The notes under the pieces: generated by a model
Told to the model about the DNA's origin: nothing
Database searches by the model: none
Seen by the model: the letters and a program-made list of their open reading frames with translations, nothing else
Part shown: one piece after another, positions 1,363 to 40,371 of the stretch
How positions within the stretch are numbered: position 1 is the first letter of the stretch
Layout: each line of letters opens with the position of its first letter
NCBI GenBank assembly: GCA_905214285.1
Contig: CAJMLI010000002.1
Location: 101,015-165,014 of the forward strand
Origin: an uncultured bacterium
GTDB taxonomy: Bacteria > Actinomycetota > Coriobacteriia > Coriobacteriales > Coriobacteriaceae
Length of the DNA stretch: 64,000 nt
Reading direction: 5' to 3'
Program-made: the position numbers and the translations under genes

Positions 1363-1449
1363 GCGGGCGTGGCGGAATTGGCAGACGCGTACGGTTCAGG
1401 TCCGTATGGGGGCAACCCCATGAAGGTTCAAGTCCTTTCGCCCGCACCA
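1363..1449 (+). tRNA. tRNA-Leu (anticodon CAG), long variable arm, CCA encoded
   Basis: Acceptor stem GCGGGCG/CGCCCGC, D-arm GCGGAATTGGCAGACGC, anticodon loop TTCAGGT, variable arm GGGGGCAACCCCATG, T-arm AAGGTTCAAGTCCTT, 3' end ACCA. Confidence 0.85.
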
Positions 1450-1500
1450 TTGATTGAAAGAGCTCCCAGCAATGGGGGCTTTTTTGTTATGTGCCCATCG
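1432..1500 (+). repeat. Direct repeat copy 1: tRNA-Leu 3' end plus terminator
   Basis: About 62 nt (gtcctttcgcccgcaccattgattgaaagagctcccagcaatggg(g/a)gcttttttgttatg) repeated at 1618-1680 with 2 mismatches. Confidence 0.8.
1462..1486 (+). terminator. Rho-independent terminator after tRNA-Leu
   Basis: Stem GCTCCCA/TGGGGGC, loop GCAA, then TTTTTT. Confidence 0.55.
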
Positions 1501-1617
1501 CAGGGACTTGAACCTGTGAAGGAGCGAGCGTCAAGAAAACGCGGAGCGTTTTTAGCGAGCTGGCGAGTCCGCCGGCAGGCGGGCGAAGCCGGTGCGGATC
1601 CGCGAAGCGGATACGCG

Positions 1618-1680
1618 GACGTCCTTTCGCCCGCACCATTGATTGAAAGAGCTCCCAGCAATGGGAGCTTTTTTGTTATG
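1618..1680 (+). repeat. Direct repeat copy 2: duplicated tRNA-Leu 3' end plus terminator (attR-like footprint)
   Basis: Near-identical to 1432-1500 but no full tRNA body precedes it. Confidence 0.8.
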
Positions 1681-6349: not shown

Positions 6350-6426
6350 GCGGCGTTACCTCAGCTGGATAGAGGGTCTGACTACGAATCAGAACGTCAT
6401 AGGTTCGAATCCTATACGCCGCACCA
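6350..6426 (+). tRNA. tRNA-Arg (anticodon ACG)
   Basis: Acceptor GCGGCGT/ACGCCGC, D-arm CCTCAGCTGGATAGAGG, anticodon loop CTACGAA, T-arm ATAGGTTCGAATCCTAT, CCA encoded. Confidence 0.85.
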
Positions 6427-6437
6427 TTTGAGATTAA

Positions 6438-6465
6438 AGCTCCCGGCAACGGGGGCTTTTCTTTT
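6438..6465 (+). terminator. Rho-independent terminator after tRNA-Arg
   Basis: agctcccggcaacgggggcttttctttt; the same design as the tRNA-Leu terminator. Confidence 0.5.
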
Positions 6466-6588
6466 ACGCCAGCTTGAGTGCTTTCGTCCAAAGGGACGAT
6501 TTCCTGTCGACTCGTGTAAGATTCCGAGTAGATGTCGCGACTTATTCGCGACCACTCCTTCTCAAGCGACCGATCAGGGTGATATTTC

Positions 6589-9030
6589 GTGGCAGAGCGT
6601 CCGACATACAAGCTCAGGTTTCTCGATCCCAAGAAGCGCTTTCCGGCGATGCCCGAGCAGCCAGCGGGACGCTCGTATGGCGTGGTCTGGAAACTCTTTG
6701 GCGAGGATCAGCATGAATCTTGCTATGTCGTCGAATTCGTTGGCAAAAGCCATGTGTCGCTTTTGGGCTACGTAAGCGTTTCGGGTGAGGTGTACAAGGT
6801 GGACCGCCCCGTTAGCGAGGCTCCGCTGCCCAACGATCCCGACATGGAACTGGTCCTTGACGAGTCGGACTCCGGTATTGGTGAGATTATGGTGAGGGGG
6901 GCAAACGGCACGATGCGCGCGTGCGCGCGAACCGTCGGCTCTCCCGAAGGCCCCATGCGCGAGCAGTCCGACCACGAGACATGGAATTCGACCCGCTCCC
7001 TTCCTTACGGCGAGTTCATGGCATCGATGTTCCTGCGCTACGTGATATTCGCTGACTCCGAAAATGCCATTGCGAGCACGGCGGACGCCGGCGGACTCGA
7101 CGAGGGTATGCAAAATGTTATCGACAAGATCAAGCTCGTAAAGTTGCCCGAGCCGGTCGAGGTGTTTTTGGGCTTTAACACGGCACCGCTCCCTGATGCT
7201 ATCGAGACGCTGCTTTACCGCGTTGACCATGCCGAGAATCCGAGCGGTATCGAGCGCTATGCCGCCGCCCTTATGAGTGAAATTGACTTGCCCCGCTTGC
7301 GCACCATCGCCGCTAAGTCCGAGATGAGCCTGGCTCGCATCGATCGCTCAAAGCTTTTCTATCTCAATTTTGATCGTAGTCTGCTGGAGCAGGACGAAAT
7401 TGACACGCTGCTCGCCATCGAGTGCCGTCTCAACCGCCTCTCCGGCATCCTTGAGCGCATCGGGGCTGGATTGGTCCCCGCGGCCTCGTCGCCGAGCCTT
7501 GAGGGCTGCGCGCTCTTCGATGCGTGGCATATCGCTAAGACGACCAACGATGTTCCCCGACTGCTCGATACGGCCTCGAGCGATAACCCGTGGGGCGAAC
7601 CGGGTACGGTGGCTTGCCAACCGGGCGGTGAGTGGGATGTGCGTACCCGCTTCGCGCGTATTGTCGAGGCGCTTAACGTGGTCACGCGGCTCGACTATAC
7701 CTATCGGGCAAACGTTGCCGAGGGGATCATGCTCGTTCGGTTTGGGCAGTCTGTCGTTGATGCCATGCCGCAACGTGAATACGACGCTCAAGATGACGCC
7801 TGGCACGAGCTGGACGAGGACACGCGCACGATCTGGGCCGCGGAGCACGATGCGCGCGTGGCGCTCACGCTTGCGGCAGCGTGTTTTGCCGCGGGCACCT
7901 GCATCACGCGCTGCTATGTGCAGATTGCTGCTCCCGACAGTGAGCAGGGCGAGCGCGTTGTTGCAACGTATTTCTTTGGGCGCGCGGCCTATCTGGCCGA
8001 TTGCGTGCCTGTCGCCAAGGATCTTGAGAGTATAGACATGGACGATATGCCGTGCAAGCGTGTGCTTGAGGCATATGAGTCAACCGCTCCGGAGACGATT
8101 GAACCTGCGGAGGTTCATGCTCGTCCGCGTGATGACCATCGCATGCTGCCGCCGGCGCTGCGCGATCTGCTGCTTGCCGATACGGCTGACGAGCTGGAGG
8201 TCATGGAAGAGGACGACGACCCATACGTGGCCCGTGTTGTTGAATTGCGCGAGCAGGCAAAAGTCGACCGTACAGGTGCTTTTGAAGGCTTTTCCCGTCT
8301 TGTTGAGGAGTTGGAGGCTAAGTGCGCCGTCGCCGAGCTTTTGGCGACAGGTCCGGTTCAAACGCAGTTTTGCGATAACCAGCTGGTGCGCATGGTGCTA
8401 CCGGTGTTGGAAGAAGACCGCTCTGTGCGAATCCTTCGTGCGCCCGATGCGCTGTACTTTGCCCAGCACGAGATCTGCAGCTTTTACGCCGAGCAAGAGG
8501 ACTTTGAACGAGCACTGCCCGAGGTGCGCCATCTTTACGATCTGGCGCGCTCGTCCATGCAGTCGCACTTTGCGCTCATCAACGTGCTTGCGCGTCTGGA
8601 GCGCTTTGACGAGATTATCGAGGTGGCGCGCCACGGCCTACGTATTGCCAGCGATCGTTCTGCAATCGGCTACCTGTTCTATCGCTTGGCGTTTGCCTAT
8701 TGGAATTGCGATCAGCTCGACCTGGCGCTGGCTTGTTACCGTCTGGTGCCGCGCGGCGAGGAGTCGGGCAGCAGCGCGCTGGAAGAAATGCAGGGCCTTA
8801 TGAACGAGATGGGCGTCAGCGAGCCTCCGACGTTCGAGGAAGCGGTCGAGACCATCCATAAGGCTGGACTAGAGCTGCCGCCAGTGTCCGCCGTGACGAA
8901 TCAGCTGGCAGATGCCGCTGTGCAACTGGTCGACAACGGTTTCTTTTTCCTGGCGCGCGGTTGTATCTTCCAAATGTGGCGCACCATGGGCAACGACGAG
9001 CTCGGCTCCCTCAACCGCTCGCTGGGGTAG
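6589..9030 (+). CDS. Large hypothetical cytoplasmic protein, 813 aa, C-terminal TPR-like helical repeats, no TM segments
   Basis: Long uninterrupted ORF. GTG start with AGGGTGA RBS; an alternative ATG lies at 6649. No family recognised by eye. The C-terminus has TPR-like helices (YLFYRLAFAYWNCDQLDLALACYRLV). Confidence 0.6.
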   Translation: MAERPTYKLRFLDPKKRFPAMPEQPAGRSYGVVWKLFGEDQHESCYVVEFVGKSHVSLLGYVSVSGEVYKVDRPVSEAPLPNDPDMELVLDESDSGIGEIMVRGANGTMRACARTVGSPEGPMREQSDHETWNSTRSLPYGEFMASMFLRYVIFADSENAIASTADAGGLDEGMQNVIDKIKLVKLPEPVEVFLGFNTAPLPDAIETLLYRVDHAENPSGIERYAAALMSEIDLPRLRTIAAKSEMSLARIDRSKLFYLNFDRSLLEQDEIDTLLAIECRLNRLSGILERIGAGLVPAASSPSLEGCALFDAWHIAKTTNDVPRLLDTASSDNPWGEPGTVACQPGGEWDVRTRFARIVEALNVVTRLDYTYRANVAEGIMLVRFGQSVVDAMPQREYDAQDDAWHELDEDTRTIWAAEHDARVALTLAAACFAAGTCITRCYVQIAAPDSEQGERVVATYFFGRAAYLADCVPVAKDLESIDMDDMPCKRVLEAYESTAPETIEPAEVHARPRDDHRMLPPALRDLLLADTADELEVMEEDDDPYVARVVELREQAKVDRTGAFEGFSRLVEELEAKCAVAELLATGPVQTQFCDNQLVRMVLPVLEEDRSVRILRAPDALYFAQHEICSFYAEQEDFERALPEVRHLYDLARSSMQSHFALINVLARLERFDEIIEVARHGLRIASDRSAIGYLFYRLAFAYWNCDQLDLALACYRLVPRGEESGSSALEEMQGLMNEMGVSEPPTFEEAVETIHKAGLELPPVSAVTNQLADAAVQLVDNGFFFLARGCIFQMWRTMGNDELGSLNRSLG

Positions 9031-9122
9031 GCGAAGCTTTCAAGAAGGAAAGGCTGCTAGGCAATTAGAAAATTTCCTCTTGCTCATCCTTGGCTGTTTG
9101 GTTACTATAGAACGGCTGTTAC

Positions 9123-9213
9123 GGAGAGCTGACCGAGAGGCCGAAGGTGCTCGCCTGCTAAGCGAGTATGCCCCAAAAGGGCATCTGGGGTTCGAATCCC
9201 CAGCTCTCCGCCA
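9123..9213 (+). tRNA. tRNA-Ser (anticodon GCT), long variable arm
   Basis: Acceptor GGAGAGC/GCTCTCC, anticodon arm CTCGC-CTGCTAA-GCGAG, variable arm TATGCCCCAAAAGGGCATC, T-arm TGGGGTTCGAATCCCCA, GCCA end. Confidence 0.85.
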
Positions 9214-9229
9214 GTATGACTTGAAAGAA

Positions 9230-9253
9230 GGGTCCCATTTGGGGCCCTTTTTT
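9230..9253 (+). terminator. Terminator after tRNA-Ser (GGGTCCC ATTT GGGGCCC + TTTTTT)
   Basis: Seen in sequence; repeated at 9420-9442. Confidence 0.55.
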
Positions 9254-9261
9254 GTGCGGAG

Positions 9262-9402
9262 AAAGGAGGCTGGGGATTCGAACCCGAGAGGGCACGGGCG
9301 TTAAGCAAACGCGAAAGCGTTTGTAGCCCGTGGGCGAAAAGCCGCCAGGCTTTGAAGCCGGAGGGCATGCGCAGCATGCCCGGACATCCCCAGCTCTCCG
9401 CC
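9262..9402. other. tRNA-Ser-derived structured segment: an inverted T-arm fragment (ggctggggattcgaaccc), a nested hairpin with a GAAA tetraloop, an 8-bp hairpin (gggcatgc gca gcatgccc), then a direct tRNA-Ser 3' fragment (ggacatccccagctctccgcca)
   Basis: Seen in sequence. It does not fold into a canonical tRNA on either strand. Confidence 0.3.
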
Positions 9403-9419
9403 AGTACGAATTTGAAGAA

Positions 9420-9473
9420 GGGTCCCATTTGGGGCCCTTTTTATTATCAAGAATGGCGGCTGGGGATTCGAAC
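9420..9473. repeat. Second copy of the tRNA-Ser terminator plus an inverted T-arm fragment (ggctggggattcgaacc)
   Basis: About 90-nt direct repeat: 9199-9290 versus 9389-9480. Confidence 0.6.
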
Positions 9474-9475
9474 CT

Positions 9476-9505
9476 CAAAAAAAGAGGCATCCTTTCGGAC
9501 GCCTC
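9476..9505 (-). terminator. Rho-independent terminator of the minus-strand carboxypeptidase gene
   Basis: Minus strand reads gaggcgtcc gaaa ggatgcctc followed by TTTTTTT. Confidence 0.55.
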
Positions 9506-9533
9506 CCTTCAGTGGGCTTATTATTCTTGCGCC

Positions 9534-10943
9534 CTACACCTCGGGCGCCTTGGCGACGGTCTCGCTTTCTGCCGTGAGTGGGCGGTTGTCGATGCGACGG
9601 CCCAAGCGATCGAGCTTCACGAGTAGCCATTCAATGGGATTCGGCCCTGCGCCCTCCTCGTCGGCAACTAGGTCCATGACGGCGATCTTGGTGCCGTCCT
9701 GCTTGAGCGTGACGCTGCCCACCTTGTCGCCCACATGCACCGTGCCCGAAAGATCGTCGTAGCTAACCTTTTCGGTCACCTCGCCGGCAAGGGAAAACAC
9801 GGTCGCTTGCGCCGTAGGATCGGCGAGTGTGGCGTCGATCGTCTTATCCGTCCAGTCGGTTTGACCAATGCGCGCCATAAGCGGGTTGCCGTTGGCGGTC
9901 TTTTCCTGTGTGTTGGCGATTGCGACCGTCACCTTGTGACCGTAGTACCAATTGGCAAGGGTTGCGGTATCGGTAAAGCGCTGGTCGGTGGTGGTGGAGT
10001 TCAAAACGACGGTGTAGATCTCGTCGCCATCGCGGTTGTAGGCACCCGTAAAGCAATAGCCTGCATCATCGGTGGTGCCGGTCTTGCCACCGATGTTGCC
10101 ATCTTGGCCTAGCAAATAGTTATGCGTGTCCATGGAATGCGAATGGTCGGTGCCGTCGGCGCCCGTGACCTCGATCCAGGAATCTTCGCTCGCTACGACC
10201 TCGCGGATCGTGTCGTTTTTCATGGCCTCCTGCATCATCAGCGCTACGTCGTGTGCGGTTGAGTGCATATCGCCAGCCCACTCATCAAAGTCCAGACCAT
10301 GCGGGTTTTCAAAAAGCGTGCCGGTGCAACCGAGCTTCTTAGCGCGCTCGTTCATGGCTTTCACAAATGTTGCCTCGGCGTCTTTGGTCTTAGGGTCGAT
10401 CTTCTTGCCCACATATTCGGCGAGCACGATGGCGGCGTCGTTGCCCGAGGGAATCATCAGGCCGCGCAGTGCCTGCTTCACGGTGAGCTCGTCGCCTTCG
10501 AGTAGGCCGGCTGTTGAATTGCCCACGGTGGCTGCGGCGTTGCTCACCGTGACCTTCTCGTCCATCTTGCAATTCTCGACGGTTAGGATTGCGGTCATGA
10601 CCTTGGTGATCGAGGCAATCTTGACCTGCTCATCGGCGCCGCGCCCATAGTAGACGGTGCCGTCTTTGCCCATGACGAGGGCATTGGTCGCATCGATATC
10701 GGGCAGGTTTTCGGCCGTGATGCCGCGCGCATCGGCGGTTTTGCCGCAAACATTGTCGGTCGTGAGCACTTGGGCGCCGGCGACGGTGGGCACGCCAGCG
10801 GCAAGGGCGATAGCGCAGACAAAGCCGGCGGCAAGCTGGGCTGAGCGCTTTGCAAAAGAGATGAGGGACTTCACAGATTTCGCTTTCGACGGGATGGTCT
10901 CTTCTGGAACTAGAGTATATCGTTTGCCGGTGTCGGCGATCAT
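9534..10943 (-). CDS. Serine-type D-Ala-D-Ala carboxypeptidase (peptidase S11, PBP5/DacA-like) with signal peptide
   Basis: SxxK motif (ASITKVMTA), SGN motif (IPSGNDAAI), and KTG-like GKTGTT. N-terminal signal/TM segment. The ORF opens at 10985; the likely ATG is at 10943. Confidence 0.8.
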   Translation of the reverse strand: MIADTGKRYTLVPEETIPSKAKSVKSLISFAKRSAQLAAGFVCAIALAAGVPTVAGAQVLTTDNVCGKTADARGITAENLPDIDATNALVMGKDGTVYYGRGADEQVKIASITKVMTAILTVENCKMDEKVTVSNAAATVGNSTAGLLEGDELTVKQALRGLMIPSGNDAAIVLAEYVGKKIDPKTKDAEATFVKAMNERAKKLGCTGTLFENPHGLDFDEWAGDMHSTAHDVALMMQEAMKNDTIREVVASEDSWIEVTGADGTDHSHSMDTHNYLLGQDGNIGGKTGTTDDAGYCFTGAYNRDGDEIYTVVLNSTTTDQRFTDTATLANWYYGHKVTVAIANTQEKTANGNPLMARIGQTDWTDKTIDATLADPTAQATVFSLAGEVTEKVSYDDLSGTVHVGDKVGSVTLKQDGTKIAVMDLVADEEGAGPNPIEWLLVKLDRLGRRIDNRPLTAESETVAKAPEV

Positions 10944-11071
10944 CGCGTGCGTGCGTGGCCCACATCCGCGCCCGAACGGGCACAAGGGTGCTTAAGGCCG
11001 ACTTAATCACCCACGCTTGTTGTGTGTGGCGTGCGTCGCCTCGGGCATAATGGAGCGCGAGAGGAGCACGC

Positions 11072-11767
11072 ATGAACGAGCGCATTTTGGTAGTTGATGA
11101 CGAGAAGGCCATCGCCGACTTGGTTGGTATCTACCTTACAAAAGAGGGCTTTGATGTCCAGATTGCCTATAGCGGGGCCGATGCTGCCAAGGCAATCCTG
11201 GAGCAGGAGTTCGATCTGGCACTGTTGGATGTCATGCTGCCCGATATCGATGGCTTTGAGCTACTGCGTACGATCCGTTTCAGCCATACCTATCCTGTGA
11301 TCATGCTGACGGCGCGCGATGCCCAGCAAGACAAGATCGAGGGCCTTTCGCTTGGCGCGGACGATTACGTGGTTAAGCCGTTCCGTCCGCTGGAGCTCAT
11401 CGCGCGCGTGCACGCTCAGCTTCGCCGCTACACCAGCTACGGTAGCCGCTCGCAGGCGGCCGAGTCGCCGACCATCCAGCTCGACGGCCTGGAGATCAAC
11501 CGCGATGCTCGTTCCGTAACGGTGGACGGTGCACCGGTACGCCTCACGCCCATCGAGTATTCCATCTTGCTGTATCTGGTTGAGCATCGCGGCAGCGTGG
11601 TAGCCGTGGAGGATCTGTTCCGCGCGGTGTGGAACGAGGATTTTATGCCCGGCTCCAACAATACGGTGATGGTGCACATTCGCCACCTGCGCGAAAAGAT
11701 TGGCGACGACGCTCAAAAGCCGCGCTTTATCAAAAACGTCTGGGGCGTCGGCTACATAATCGAATAG
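11072..11767 (+). CDS. OmpR-family response regulator, VanR-type
   Basis: Receiver plus winged-helix domains. YPVIMLTARDAQQDKIEGLSLGADDYVVKPFRPLELIARVHAQLRRY closely parallels the VanR consensus as I recall it. Confidence 0.8.
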   Translation: MNERILVVDDEKAIADLVGIYLTKEGFDVQIAYSGADAAKAILEQEFDLALLDVMLPDIDGFELLRTIRFSHTYPVIMLTARDAQQDKIEGLSLGADDYVVKPFRPLELIARVHAQLRRYTSYGSRSQAAESPTIQLDGLEINRDARSVTVDGAPVRLTPIEYSILLYLVEHRGSVVAVEDLFRAVWNEDFMPGSNNTVMVHIRHLREKIGDDAQKPRFIKNVWGVGYIIE

Positions 11768-11786
11768 CGCCTTTGATGGTGGGGAA

Positions 11787-13031
11787 GTGGATATGACAAA
11801 AGACGATAGGCAGGCATTCGAGGTGCCCGATCGACTCTTTGAATACGTACGGGCAGTCGTCGACAACCGCGCGCTTGCGACGGTGCTGCTCTTTTTGCTG
11901 AGCCTGCTGCTGATTGGCATCGACAACATCGCCGGAGTCTTAGCGGTGCTGCTTGTCGGCTTTTTGCTGATCGATCGATTCGAAATCGTGCGCCGTTGCG
12001 TGGTGATTGGCGGTGCCGCGTGGGCCATGACGTTGGCGATTGGCGCCATGGCGCTCGGCGGCATCGAAGGGCCGGTGTTGTTCGATGCCGGCTTTGTATT
12101 CAACATGCTTGGCTTTGTGCTGGCGCTTGCCGTGTGCGTGCTGTTCTTTTGCGGCCGCGCCCTGTACTACCATGGCTACGAGCAGGGCGAGCAGCATGCC
12201 GATTGTGTGCTGGCCGCTCGTATTCAAGATCGCCTGATCGATCACCCCGACACCTGGGATAACATCGACGGCGACTTCTTGGAGGTCGAGGGCGCCCTTA
12301 ACCGCGTGCGTGACCGTGAGCGCAAGGTGCAGCAAGCTCTGCGTGACGAGTCGCATCGCAAGGACGATTTGGTCACGTACTTGGCACATGACCTACGCAC
12401 CCCGCTTGCCAGTGTGGTGGGCTATCTTTCGCTGCTGCAAGAGGCTCCTGAGCTGCCGGTTGAGCAATGTGCGCGCTTTACGGGCGTGGCACTCGACAAG
12501 GCGCACCGGCTCGATGCGCTCATCGAGGAGTTCTTCGATATCACGCGCTTTGACTTCCACGATATCGTGCTCACGCGCGGCTATGTTGATCTGGGGTTGC
12601 TGCTGGCTCAGGTGGCTGACGAGTTCTATCCCATCCTCAACGAGCAGCATAAGGAAGCCCAAGTTGATATTCGCGAGGACCTGACGGTGCTCGTGGATGG
12701 CGACAAGATGGCCCGCGTGTTCAACAACATCATGAAAAACGCCGTCGCCTATAGCTACGAGGGCTCGACCATCACGATTGAGGCCAGGCGCCAAGACGAT
12801 GGTGGCGTGCGCGTGCGCTTTATCAATCAGGGCGATCCTATCCCTGCGGCTAAGCTCAAGGTAATCTTTGAGAAGTTCTATCGCCTGGATGCGGCGCGTG
12901 CGACCAATCGCGGTGGTGCCGGTTTGGGCCTTGCTATTGCCAAGGAGATCATCGCGGCACACGGCGGTACCGTTGCATGTGAATCGACGCCCGAACACAC
13001 GATATTCACCATCGAGCTGCCCGCCGCATAG
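11787..13031 (+). CDS. Sensor histidine kinase, VanS-type
   Basis: N-terminal TM helices. H-box LAHDLRTPLASVVGYLSLLQEAPELPVEQ, N/G boxes (VFNNIMKNAVAYS, GGAGLGLAIAKEII). Strongly VanS-like from memory. GTG at 11787 or ATG at 11793. Confidence 0.8.
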   Translation: MDMTKDDRQAFEVPDRLFEYVRAVVDNRALATVLLFLLSLLLIGIDNIAGVLAVLLVGFLLIDRFEIVRRCVVIGGAAWAMTLAIGAMALGGIEGPVLFDAGFVFNMLGFVLALAVCVLFFCGRALYYHGYEQGEQHADCVLAARIQDRLIDHPDTWDNIDGDFLEVEGALNRVRDRERKVQQALRDESHRKDDLVTYLAHDLRTPLASVVGYLSLLQEAPELPVEQCARFTGVALDKAHRLDALIEEFFDITRFDFHDIVLTRGYVDLGLLLAQVADEFYPILNEQHKEAQVDIREDLTVLVDGDKMARVFNNIMKNAVAYSYEGSTITIEARRQDDGGVRVRFINQGDPIPAAKLKVIFEKFYRLDAARATNRGGAGLGLAIAKEIIAAHGGTVACESTPEHTIFTIELPAA

Positions 13032-40115: not shown

Positions 40116-40371
40116 GGCGGGCCTTTCCAAGTGCAGTTGTATTGGGGCACATTGTCGCACGTGACGAGCGCGGGCGGGTGTCACGGCGCGTCAATTGTTT
40201 CGTCTCCGTCAAGTCTTTGGGCAGGAGCCACTTTTTCGCGGCACATCGACGCGAGTGCGATAAGATAGAACGCCATGTCTGGCTGCGCGGTTTACGCAGG
40301 CTGGGCAAATCTGTACGACGCCGCCCGGAACGACACGGGGCGGCACAGATCCATAAAGGAGGATCACTGGT

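Follow-up and report, generated by a model that had tools for sequence, protein, structure and literature searches.

The stretch of DNA analysed here, 64,000 nucleotides (nt) from an uncultured member of the Coriobacteriaceae (assembly GCA_905214285.1, contig CAJMLI010000002.1) and referred to below as the window, contains a tRNA-Ser(GCT) gene at 9123–9213 of the plus strand, followed by a repeated and highly structured segment that is the subject of this report. The tRNA gene encodes its CCA end and is recognized both by ARAGORN and by the Rfam tRNA model (50.7 bits). A repeat search identifies a direct repeat of 89 nt on the plus strand, 9196–9284 and 9386–9474, the two copies of which are 87% identical and spaced 190 nt apart. 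Each copy opens with the last 18 nt of the tRNA, running from T-loop positions 59–60 to the CCA, such that 9386–9403 is identical to 9196–9213 (ATCCCCAGCTCTCCGCCA), and continues with a 16 nt spacer, a terminator-like hairpin, a variable stretch, and an inverted copy of the tRNA T-arm, the last located at 9269–9284 in the first copy and at 9459–9474 in the second. The repeat is therefore not confined to an attachment-site (attB/attP) block inside the tRNA, and outruns the tRNA-Ser gene by 71 nt, taking in spacer, terminator, and inverted T-arm copy. The first terminator-like hairpin (9224–9253, plus strand) has a GGGTCCC/GGGGCCC stem and an ATTT loop, with an A-tract on its 5' side and six T residues on its 3' side (−20.5 kcal/mol, z = −4.7), and its counterpart in the second copy (9415–9442) folds with −19.5 kcal/mol; compensatory changes between strains keep the terminator stems paired. 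A preliminary description, made from the sequence alone, had ended the tRNA at 9213 and noted a repeat of about 90 nt comprising the tRNA 3' end, terminator, and inverted T-arm, and both observations hold, well outside what chance would give; the second copy that it put at 9389–9480 is real, but begins at 9386, a few bases earlier, and is 89 nt long.

Conservation among 47 copies, a covariance model (R1, built from 33 units, matching 9270–9393 at 112 bits), and covariation together delimit a unit at 9269–9403 on the tRNA-Ser strand, with sharp edges against variable flanks: the block from GCTGGGG (9269) to CCGCCAG (9404) is nearly invariant in the 47 Ser-type copies, and the flanks are highly variable. 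The unit falls into three parts: the host T-arm in inverted form, a conserved four-hairpin core, and a direct repeat of the final 18 nt of the host, which covers T-loop positions 59–60, the 3' strands of the T-stem and acceptor stem, the discriminator, and CCA. It is followed by a second copy of spacer and terminator, and hence the 89 nt direct repeat. The inverted T-arm copy (GCTGGGGATTCGAACC, 9269–9284, plus strand) is exact, forms an inverted repeat with 9184–9204, and provides the 5' strand of a closing stem; the 64 kb contain three exact matches to it, where 0.11 would be expected. The inverted and direct copies are predicted to pair (9270–9278 with 9386–9394) and so to close the structure, leaving a tRNA-like 3' tail free (UCUCCGCCA, 9395–9403).

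Within the closing stem (GCUGGGGAU/AUCCCCAGC), the 101 nt between the repeat copies together with the flanking T-arm pieces form the four hairpins, and the enclosed segment folds with a free energy of −86.9 kcal/mol (z = −7.7). Reading along the plus strand, these are H1 (9283–9292, CCC-GAGA-GGG with a GNRA-type loop; helix 2 of the alignment described below, 99% paired, with C-G/U-A covariation); the stem P2 (9293–9332, CACGGGC/GCCCGTG) around the GAAA-looped H2 (9305–9324), supported by folding and covariation; the stem P3 (9333–9359, GGC/GCC) around H3 (AAAGCC-GCCA-GGCTTT), which are helices 5 and 6; and H4 (9363–9381, GGGCATGC-GCA-GCATGCCC), which is helix 7. The AAACGC-GAAA-GCGTTT hairpin (9307–9322) and the H4 hairpin had been reported in the preliminary description and are present as it described them. 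ARAGORN finds no tRNA or tmRNA (transfer-messenger RNA), permuted or otherwise, on either strand of 9214–9530, and Rfam, searched at the gathering threshold over the window and at E ≤ 10 in 9050–9600, gives nothing in this region but the tRNA plus chance matches. The chance matches are to the sX4, Atu_C8, and microRNA models and merely overlap the tRNA or terminator. Against three other candidates (two-piece tmRNA, selenocysteine tRNA, and a tRNA on the minus strand carrying an insert) stand both the strand test described below and the lack of a T-arm or acceptor on the minus strand.

The segment behind tRNA-Ser is not the only one of its kind in the window; the other is absent from the preliminary description. 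An nhmmer profile search of the window located a diverged homologue of the core at 1518–1601, just 3' of a tRNA-Leu(CAG) gene (1363–1449, plus strand; ARAGORN). This core lies in a second unit (1500–1638, plus strand; 120 bits with R1, and supported by folding) between an inverted T-arm (1500–1514) and a repeat of the tRNA-Leu 3' end (1621–1638), and the unit is flanked by terminator hairpins at 1456–1485 and 1645–1674. The layout is the same as at tRNA-Ser: tRNA 3' end, spacer, terminator, inverted T-arm, core, 3'-end copy, terminator. The units begin 56 nt past tRNA-Ser and 51 nt past tRNA-Leu, and both are on the tRNA strand. A simple pattern scanner for terminators called none, missing all four hairpins at the two loci (9224–9253, 9415–9442, 1456–1485, and 1645–1674) despite their strong folds, probably because pairing between the A-tract and T-tract absorbs the T-run. 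With an A-tract on the 5' side and a T-tract on the 3' side, all four are potentially bidirectional.

A metagenome scan with a degenerate pattern of the core recovered at least 80 loci with at least 86 pattern-matching units, and the covariance model identifies 133 units in the window plus 86 loci. The hosts are about ten RNAs in all: tRNA-Gly(CCC), tRNA-Gly(GCC), tRNA-Arg(ACG), tRNA-Leu(CAG), tRNA-Ser(GCT), and tRNA-Leu(CAA), tRNA-Lys(TTT) and tRNA-Phe(GAA) for a diverged subfamily, and tmRNA. In every unit type the inverted and direct end copies match the unit's own host RNA and the direct copy starts at T-loop position 59; that the 5' copy is a true inversion is evident at the tmRNA gene, where AATCGA faces TCGATT. 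The types differ in the extent of the duplication. Gly-type units depart from the tRNA-Ser arrangement in that only the 18 nt 3' end is repeated and the two trailers differ, and in tmRNA-type units just 10 nt are kept, corresponding to the closing stem alone. The most distant member (L091, Ga0082212_10088105) is a contig of 46% G+C with tandem 177 nt units behind tRNA-Leu(CAA). A neighbouring hydrolase is closest to Oscillospiraceae/Clostridia proteins, and the contig is probably from the Oscillospiraceae; the family therefore crosses phyla, into the Bacillota. Stem P2, which is CGCGGGC/GCCCGCG or, with tandem G.A pairs, GCGAGC/GCGAGC in other subfamilies, is rebuilt in this contig from wholly different sequence (CUUUUGGC/GCCGAAAG).

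The helices were evaluated in an alignment of 113 distinct copies fitted to the covariance model. Standard pairs occupy 91.3% of the cells at paired positions, compared with 35–43% when the partners are slid by one to three columns. Changes on both sides are seen in 33 of the 46 pairs (including six of seven in H3 and seven of ten in H4), and none of 500 shuffles reached the observed covariation score. The departures from Watson-Crick pairing are strongly strand-dependent: on the tRNA strand there are 243 G-U or U-G cells and 23 A-C or C-A cells, and 144 versus 23 if a single invariant G-U column is omitted. Helix positions that do not pair are consistently purine-purine (alignment columns 44/117, 45/116, 128/149, and 164/180), those in P2 being tandem G.A/A.G and those in H3 and H4 being G.A or G.G; they could represent structured motifs, sheared G.A pairs for instance, and not defects. 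The G-U excess, the G.A mismatches, and the GNRA-type loops all lie on the tRNA strand and therefore indicate an RNA read in the tRNA direction; judged by its sequence, the unit is unlike either a DNA palindrome or a minus-strand transcript. The near-invariance of the core beside variable flanks points to purifying selection on the core.

Relatives of the tRNA-Ser locus were retrieved through the adjacent D-Ala-D-Ala carboxypeptidase gene (9534–10985, minus strand), giving 80 loci from Collinsella aerofaciens-like genomes with 98–99% protein identity. The distance from tRNA-Ser to the carboxypeptidase gene falls into two classes, about 228 nt (29 loci) and about 419 nt (41 loci and the window), and among these 71 alleles the difference corresponds exactly to the 190 nt unit. 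Whether a locus has the unit shows no phylogenetic signal when set against the neighbouring gene: nearest neighbours share the same state in 37 of 71 cases with 36.2 expected. The module of spacer, terminator, and variable stretch exists as many alleles, which are swapped between first and second positions across strains.

A few loci have other lengths. Three with foreign DNA beside the inverted T-arm copy (L027, L059, L014) were considered as islands and contain instead an insertion sequence (IS) or IS ends: the first carries an IS3-family element at 7530–8622, with a helix-turn-helix orfA and a DDE orfB, and the other two have only short foreign stretches, which we read as IS ends. The remaining odd-length loci are assembly gaps, and many contigs of relatives break off at the tRNA-Arg and tRNA-Ser repeats.

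Copy number variation is more extensive behind tRNA-Arg(ACG), located at 6350–6426 in the window (ARAGORN). Here the window has an empty site, the trailer at 6427–6588, and the distance from the tRNA to the next open reading frame (ORF), which encodes 813 amino acids, is 239 nt; in relatives it ranges up to 1359 nt. These contain from zero to five or more units of 190–191 nt with Arg-specific inverted and 3' copies, interspersed with units of about 241 nt that contain a promoter-like region and a complete additional tRNA-Arg gene. In five relatives (L023, L003, L022, L056, and L057, at about 10400–12100) the arrays reach about 1.1 kb with one to three extra tRNA-Arg genes, such that tRNA-Arg gene dosage differs between near-identical genomes, from one to four or more copies. 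An empty and a singly occupied allele (L017 and L019) differ by 191 nt, comprising the unit plus a 61 nt duplicate that extends from the T-loop through the whole terminator. Truncated units, with an inverted copy and the first 20–30 nt of the core, are common at tRNA-Arg, and by analogy the second inverted T-arm copy behind tRNA-Ser (9459–9474) probably represents what is left of another, truncated unit. Chimeric units are also seen in the metagenome set (L085, L096, and L149), with a left end that matches tRNA-Arg or tmRNA and a right end that matches a different host, namely tRNA-Leu, tRNA-Gly, or a promoter together with a tRNA-Arg gene; these are either real rearrangements via the shared core or chimeras of metagenome assembly.

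This architecture resembles that of the tRNA-linked repeats (TLRs) of Escherichia coli, which were reportedly described by Egan and Landy in 1978 and by Rudd in 1999 and are said to include the 178 bp repeats at tyrT. In E. coli K-12, 22 TLRs are distributed over ten loci within tRNA or rRNA operons, each locus having one to five of them, and the 3' end of every TLR shares 18–19 identical bp with that of the tRNA or rRNA upstream of it (PMC8144298). For RtT and RrB, transcription as part of the operon and processing to a discrete RNA have been shown. They are without known function, an early claim that the RtT RNA acts in the stringent response having been withdrawn (PMC8144298). The Collinsella units correspond in position throughout. 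Those at 9269–9403 and 1500–1638, and those at related loci whose contigs include the host, are immediately downstream of a stable-RNA gene and on its strand; the Ser, Leu, Arg, Gly, Lys, and Phe types end in an 18–19 nt identity to the tRNA 3' end through CCA (10 nt only for the tmRNA type); and units occur at several loci per genome, with two loci in the window, and in tandem, with zero to five or more units at tRNA-Arg. The likeness extends to the fold. Four units at the E. coli tyrT locus score 133–137 bits with the Rfam RtT model (RF00391), in whose consensus an inverted copy of the tRNA-Tyr T-stem/acceptor (GgGaaGGAU) pairs with the direct AUCCuuCcC, with hairpins between them and a ccaCCACCA tail, so that in both systems an inverted T-stem copy and a direct copy close a multi-hairpin core and leave a tail. 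Unit lengths are similar (178 and 190 nt). The two differ in their hosts, which are Enterobacteria for the TLRs and Actinomycetota plus one Bacillota contig for the Collinsella-type family, in that a copy of the tRNA intrinsic terminator usually belongs to the Collinsella unit and is lacking from the tyrT repeats, and in that the Collinsella-type family includes tmRNA among its hosts and has a core common to about ten host RNAs. On the sequence evidence, then, the Collinsella units agree with the TLR class in every aspect of position without detectable homology to it.

The closest parallel in overall layout is with RrA, RrB, and RrF, the three TLRs behind 5S rRNA, where a stable-RNA gene is similarly followed by terminator 1, a structured unit ending in an 18 nt 3' copy, and terminator 2. 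These lie between terminators T1 and T2 of rrn operons, are products of read-through, are processed, and bind Hfq and CsrA, and the repeated 3' end has been suggested to guide cleavage by RNase E (PMC8144298). They differ from the units described here in having 5S rRNA as host and in binding Hfq and CsrA through GGA loops; nothing in the Collinsella units suggests such binding, although neither partner was sought.

We think it probable that positions 9269–9403 constitute a gene-like unit specifying a structured RNA, about 135 nt long, encoded on the tRNA-Ser strand and belonging to a family that resides in tRNA and tmRNA trailers. Transcription of the unit would occur by read-through of the tRNA terminator, by analogy with E. 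coli RrB between rrnB T1 and T2; the strand-specific covariation supports transcription indirectly. The acceptor/T-stem-like closing helix and CCA tail could then be cut by the enzymes of tRNA end maturation and trimmed to a defined 3' end. Copy number would shift through unequal homologous recombination between the repeated 3'-end/terminator modules, a mechanism in keeping with the exact 190/191 nt steps, with module alleles that are shuffled, and with the absence of phylogenetic signal; microhomology deletions might account for stumps, among them the inverted T-arm copy at 9459–9474. The small-RNA idea in the preliminary description, in which the segment was offered as a possible tRNA-derived RNA, is thus close to what the evidence favours: there is a covarying RNA structure on the tRNA strand with tRNA-derived ends, but the core itself does not derive from a tRNA.

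Several points weigh against this interpretation. No promoter-like site is seen inside the unit, and transcription therefore hangs on an assumed read-through of a strong-looking terminator. Unequal recombination explains changes in copy number at a single locus, but not how cores with matching ends came to lie behind ten RNA genes, and the inverted T-arm copy is longer than the closing stem needs and is complementary to the T-arm of the host tRNA itself; the unexplained origin of the inverted copy and the presence of cores behind ten genes in two phyla leave a mobile-element reading with some, though low, probability. The alignment used for covariation had been fitted to a model and many of its rows are close relatives, with the number of independent events being far below the cell counts, so that its weight rests on differences between the subfamilies (Ser, Arg, Leu, Gly, tmRNA, Lys/Phe, and Oscillospiraceae). 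The likeness to the E. coli repeats, moreover, may be convergence. Rfam RtT has no match in the window at its gathering threshold (45 bits), nor in 9050–9600 at E ≤ 10, an nhmmer profile of the Collinsella units has no significant match in E. coli, and the best match of R1 to E. coli (E = 0.11) is out of register.

The mobile-element reading supposes a non-autonomous unit of about 190 nt that consists of a tRNA 3' end serving as replacement, a terminator, the inverted T-arm, and the core. Such a unit would insert into the T-loops of tRNA and tmRNA genes, restoring the tRNA in the manner of integrative elements, and would rely for its movement on a recombinase, reverse transcriptase, or homology-dependent process acting in trans, with the RNA fold being a mobility aid or by-product. 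Homologous cores behind about ten RNA genes in two phyla would be expected of such an element, as would the many repeat-module alleles shuffled between positions, presence or absence without phylogenetic signal, and the Gly-type arrangement, where the duplicated 18 nt 3' end and differing trailers look like attL and attR. The start of the direct copy at position 59 in all types is also suggestive; position 59 is a sublocation of T-loop-targeting integrases, and the 18 nt span is one copied from primer tRNAs by retroelements. We nonetheless consider this reading unlikely. No recombinase or reverse transcriptase gene accompanies the units at any locus, and a search for attP sites found no match to the core in 2.9 million viral contigs, 50,697 phage records, and 72,556 plasmids. 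Selection acts on the RNA fold of the tRNA strand, an integrase would need to recognize very different T-arms, and the E. coli counterparts are found also behind 5S rRNA, which is not an integration target. Miniature inverted-repeat transposable elements have terminal inverted repeats of their own and a short target-site duplication, whereas here the inverted ends copy the local tRNA and vary by locus, and the duplication at tRNA-Arg is 61 nt. Group II introns of the type that insert behind terminators, and REP/RAYT-type elements, were set aside, there being no intron domain or transposase. A broader version, also doubtful in our view, is that tiny elements parasitize stable-RNA genes and copy themselves behind tRNA, tmRNA, and enterobacterial 5S genes, templated by the 3' end of the host RNA, for example by T-loop-directed recombination or by reverse transcription stopping at position 58. 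This would explain the paired inverted and direct copies, the position-59 start, and the near-identical cores in Actinomycetota and Bacillota, and if true the E. coli TLRs would be the same phenomenon, unexplained since 1978.

The preliminary description had put forward attL and attR sites of an excised or decayed tyrosine-integrase island, with the 813-amino-acid ORF as possible cargo, in which case the 100 nt core would be the last remnant of the island, and a direct repeat of a tRNA 3' end beginning in the T-loop is indeed given as the usual footprint of integration in PMC9897764, citing Williams 2002 and Reiter 1989. The Collinsella units share this feature with integrase attachment sites, as they do the use of tRNA and tmRNA hosts, but are without integrase or cargo, and the repeat extends into the trailer with its spacer, terminator, and inverted T-arm and encloses a conserved RNA. 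Comparison of occupied and empty sites, which had been proposed as a check together with a search for an integrase at homologous sites, yielded only alleles with the unit (42) or without it (29), plus IS insertions or assembly gaps; an integrase or island is present in none of about 160 related loci (80 genomes plus the metagenome loci), and no island-sized insertion lies between the repeats in any of the 71 alleles. Homologous cores lie behind at least eight further tRNA species and tmRNA, and a remnant with identical endpoints would have to arise independently at about ten RNA genes. The core is, moreover, subject to purifying selection, and it covaries. The 813-amino-acid ORF (6589–9030), which has no Pfam or NCBIfam match, is upstream of the tRNA and outside the repeats. 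Among 69 relatives, 65 have it at a constant distance from tRNA-Ser, which makes it a fixed core gene rather than variable cargo. Neither the integrase scar nor the island cargo is supported, and we regard this history of the segment as highly improbable. Only slightly more credible, and still quite improbable, is that the units are functionless by-products of tandem duplication or replication slippage and that their hairpins are DNA palindromes such as REP-like elements. Arrays do grow and shrink, units decay to stumps, and chimeric units (L085 and L096) join different loci, as a by-product might. Double compensatory changes in 33 of 46 pairs and a core that stays nearly invariant while its flanks diverge are hard to reconcile with this, and the tenfold excess of G-U over A-C is specific to one strand, unlike in palindromes of double-stranded DNA.

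We judge the element to represent a new, unannotated family of TLR-type RNA units, of a kind that is known but neglected, and Rfam contains no family for it. To our knowledge, TLRs have been known in E. coli since 1978 with no accepted function or origin, and have been treated as an enterobacterial curiosity. The same architecture is found here in abundant Actinomycetota of the human gut and in a Clostridia contig, with a different, conserved, and covarying core, linked to about ten host RNAs including tmRNA and changing rapidly in copy number. This suggests a general phenomenon, either of widespread RNAs that borrow the tRNA maturation machinery or of elements colonizing stable-RNA genes. In practical terms, the units make partial tRNA copies that resemble attachment sites, change the dosage of tRNA genes, and interrupt short-read assemblies where tRNA genes lie, and the family could be added to Rfam.

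Two further features were noted. At four of the related loci there are an additional 1380 nt between the start of the 813-amino-acid ORF and tRNA-Ser, with IS insertions in or around the intergenic region. Elsewhere in the window, positions 40277–40360 match the Rfam aspS RNA motif (RF02930) at 76 bits, which is above its gathering threshold.

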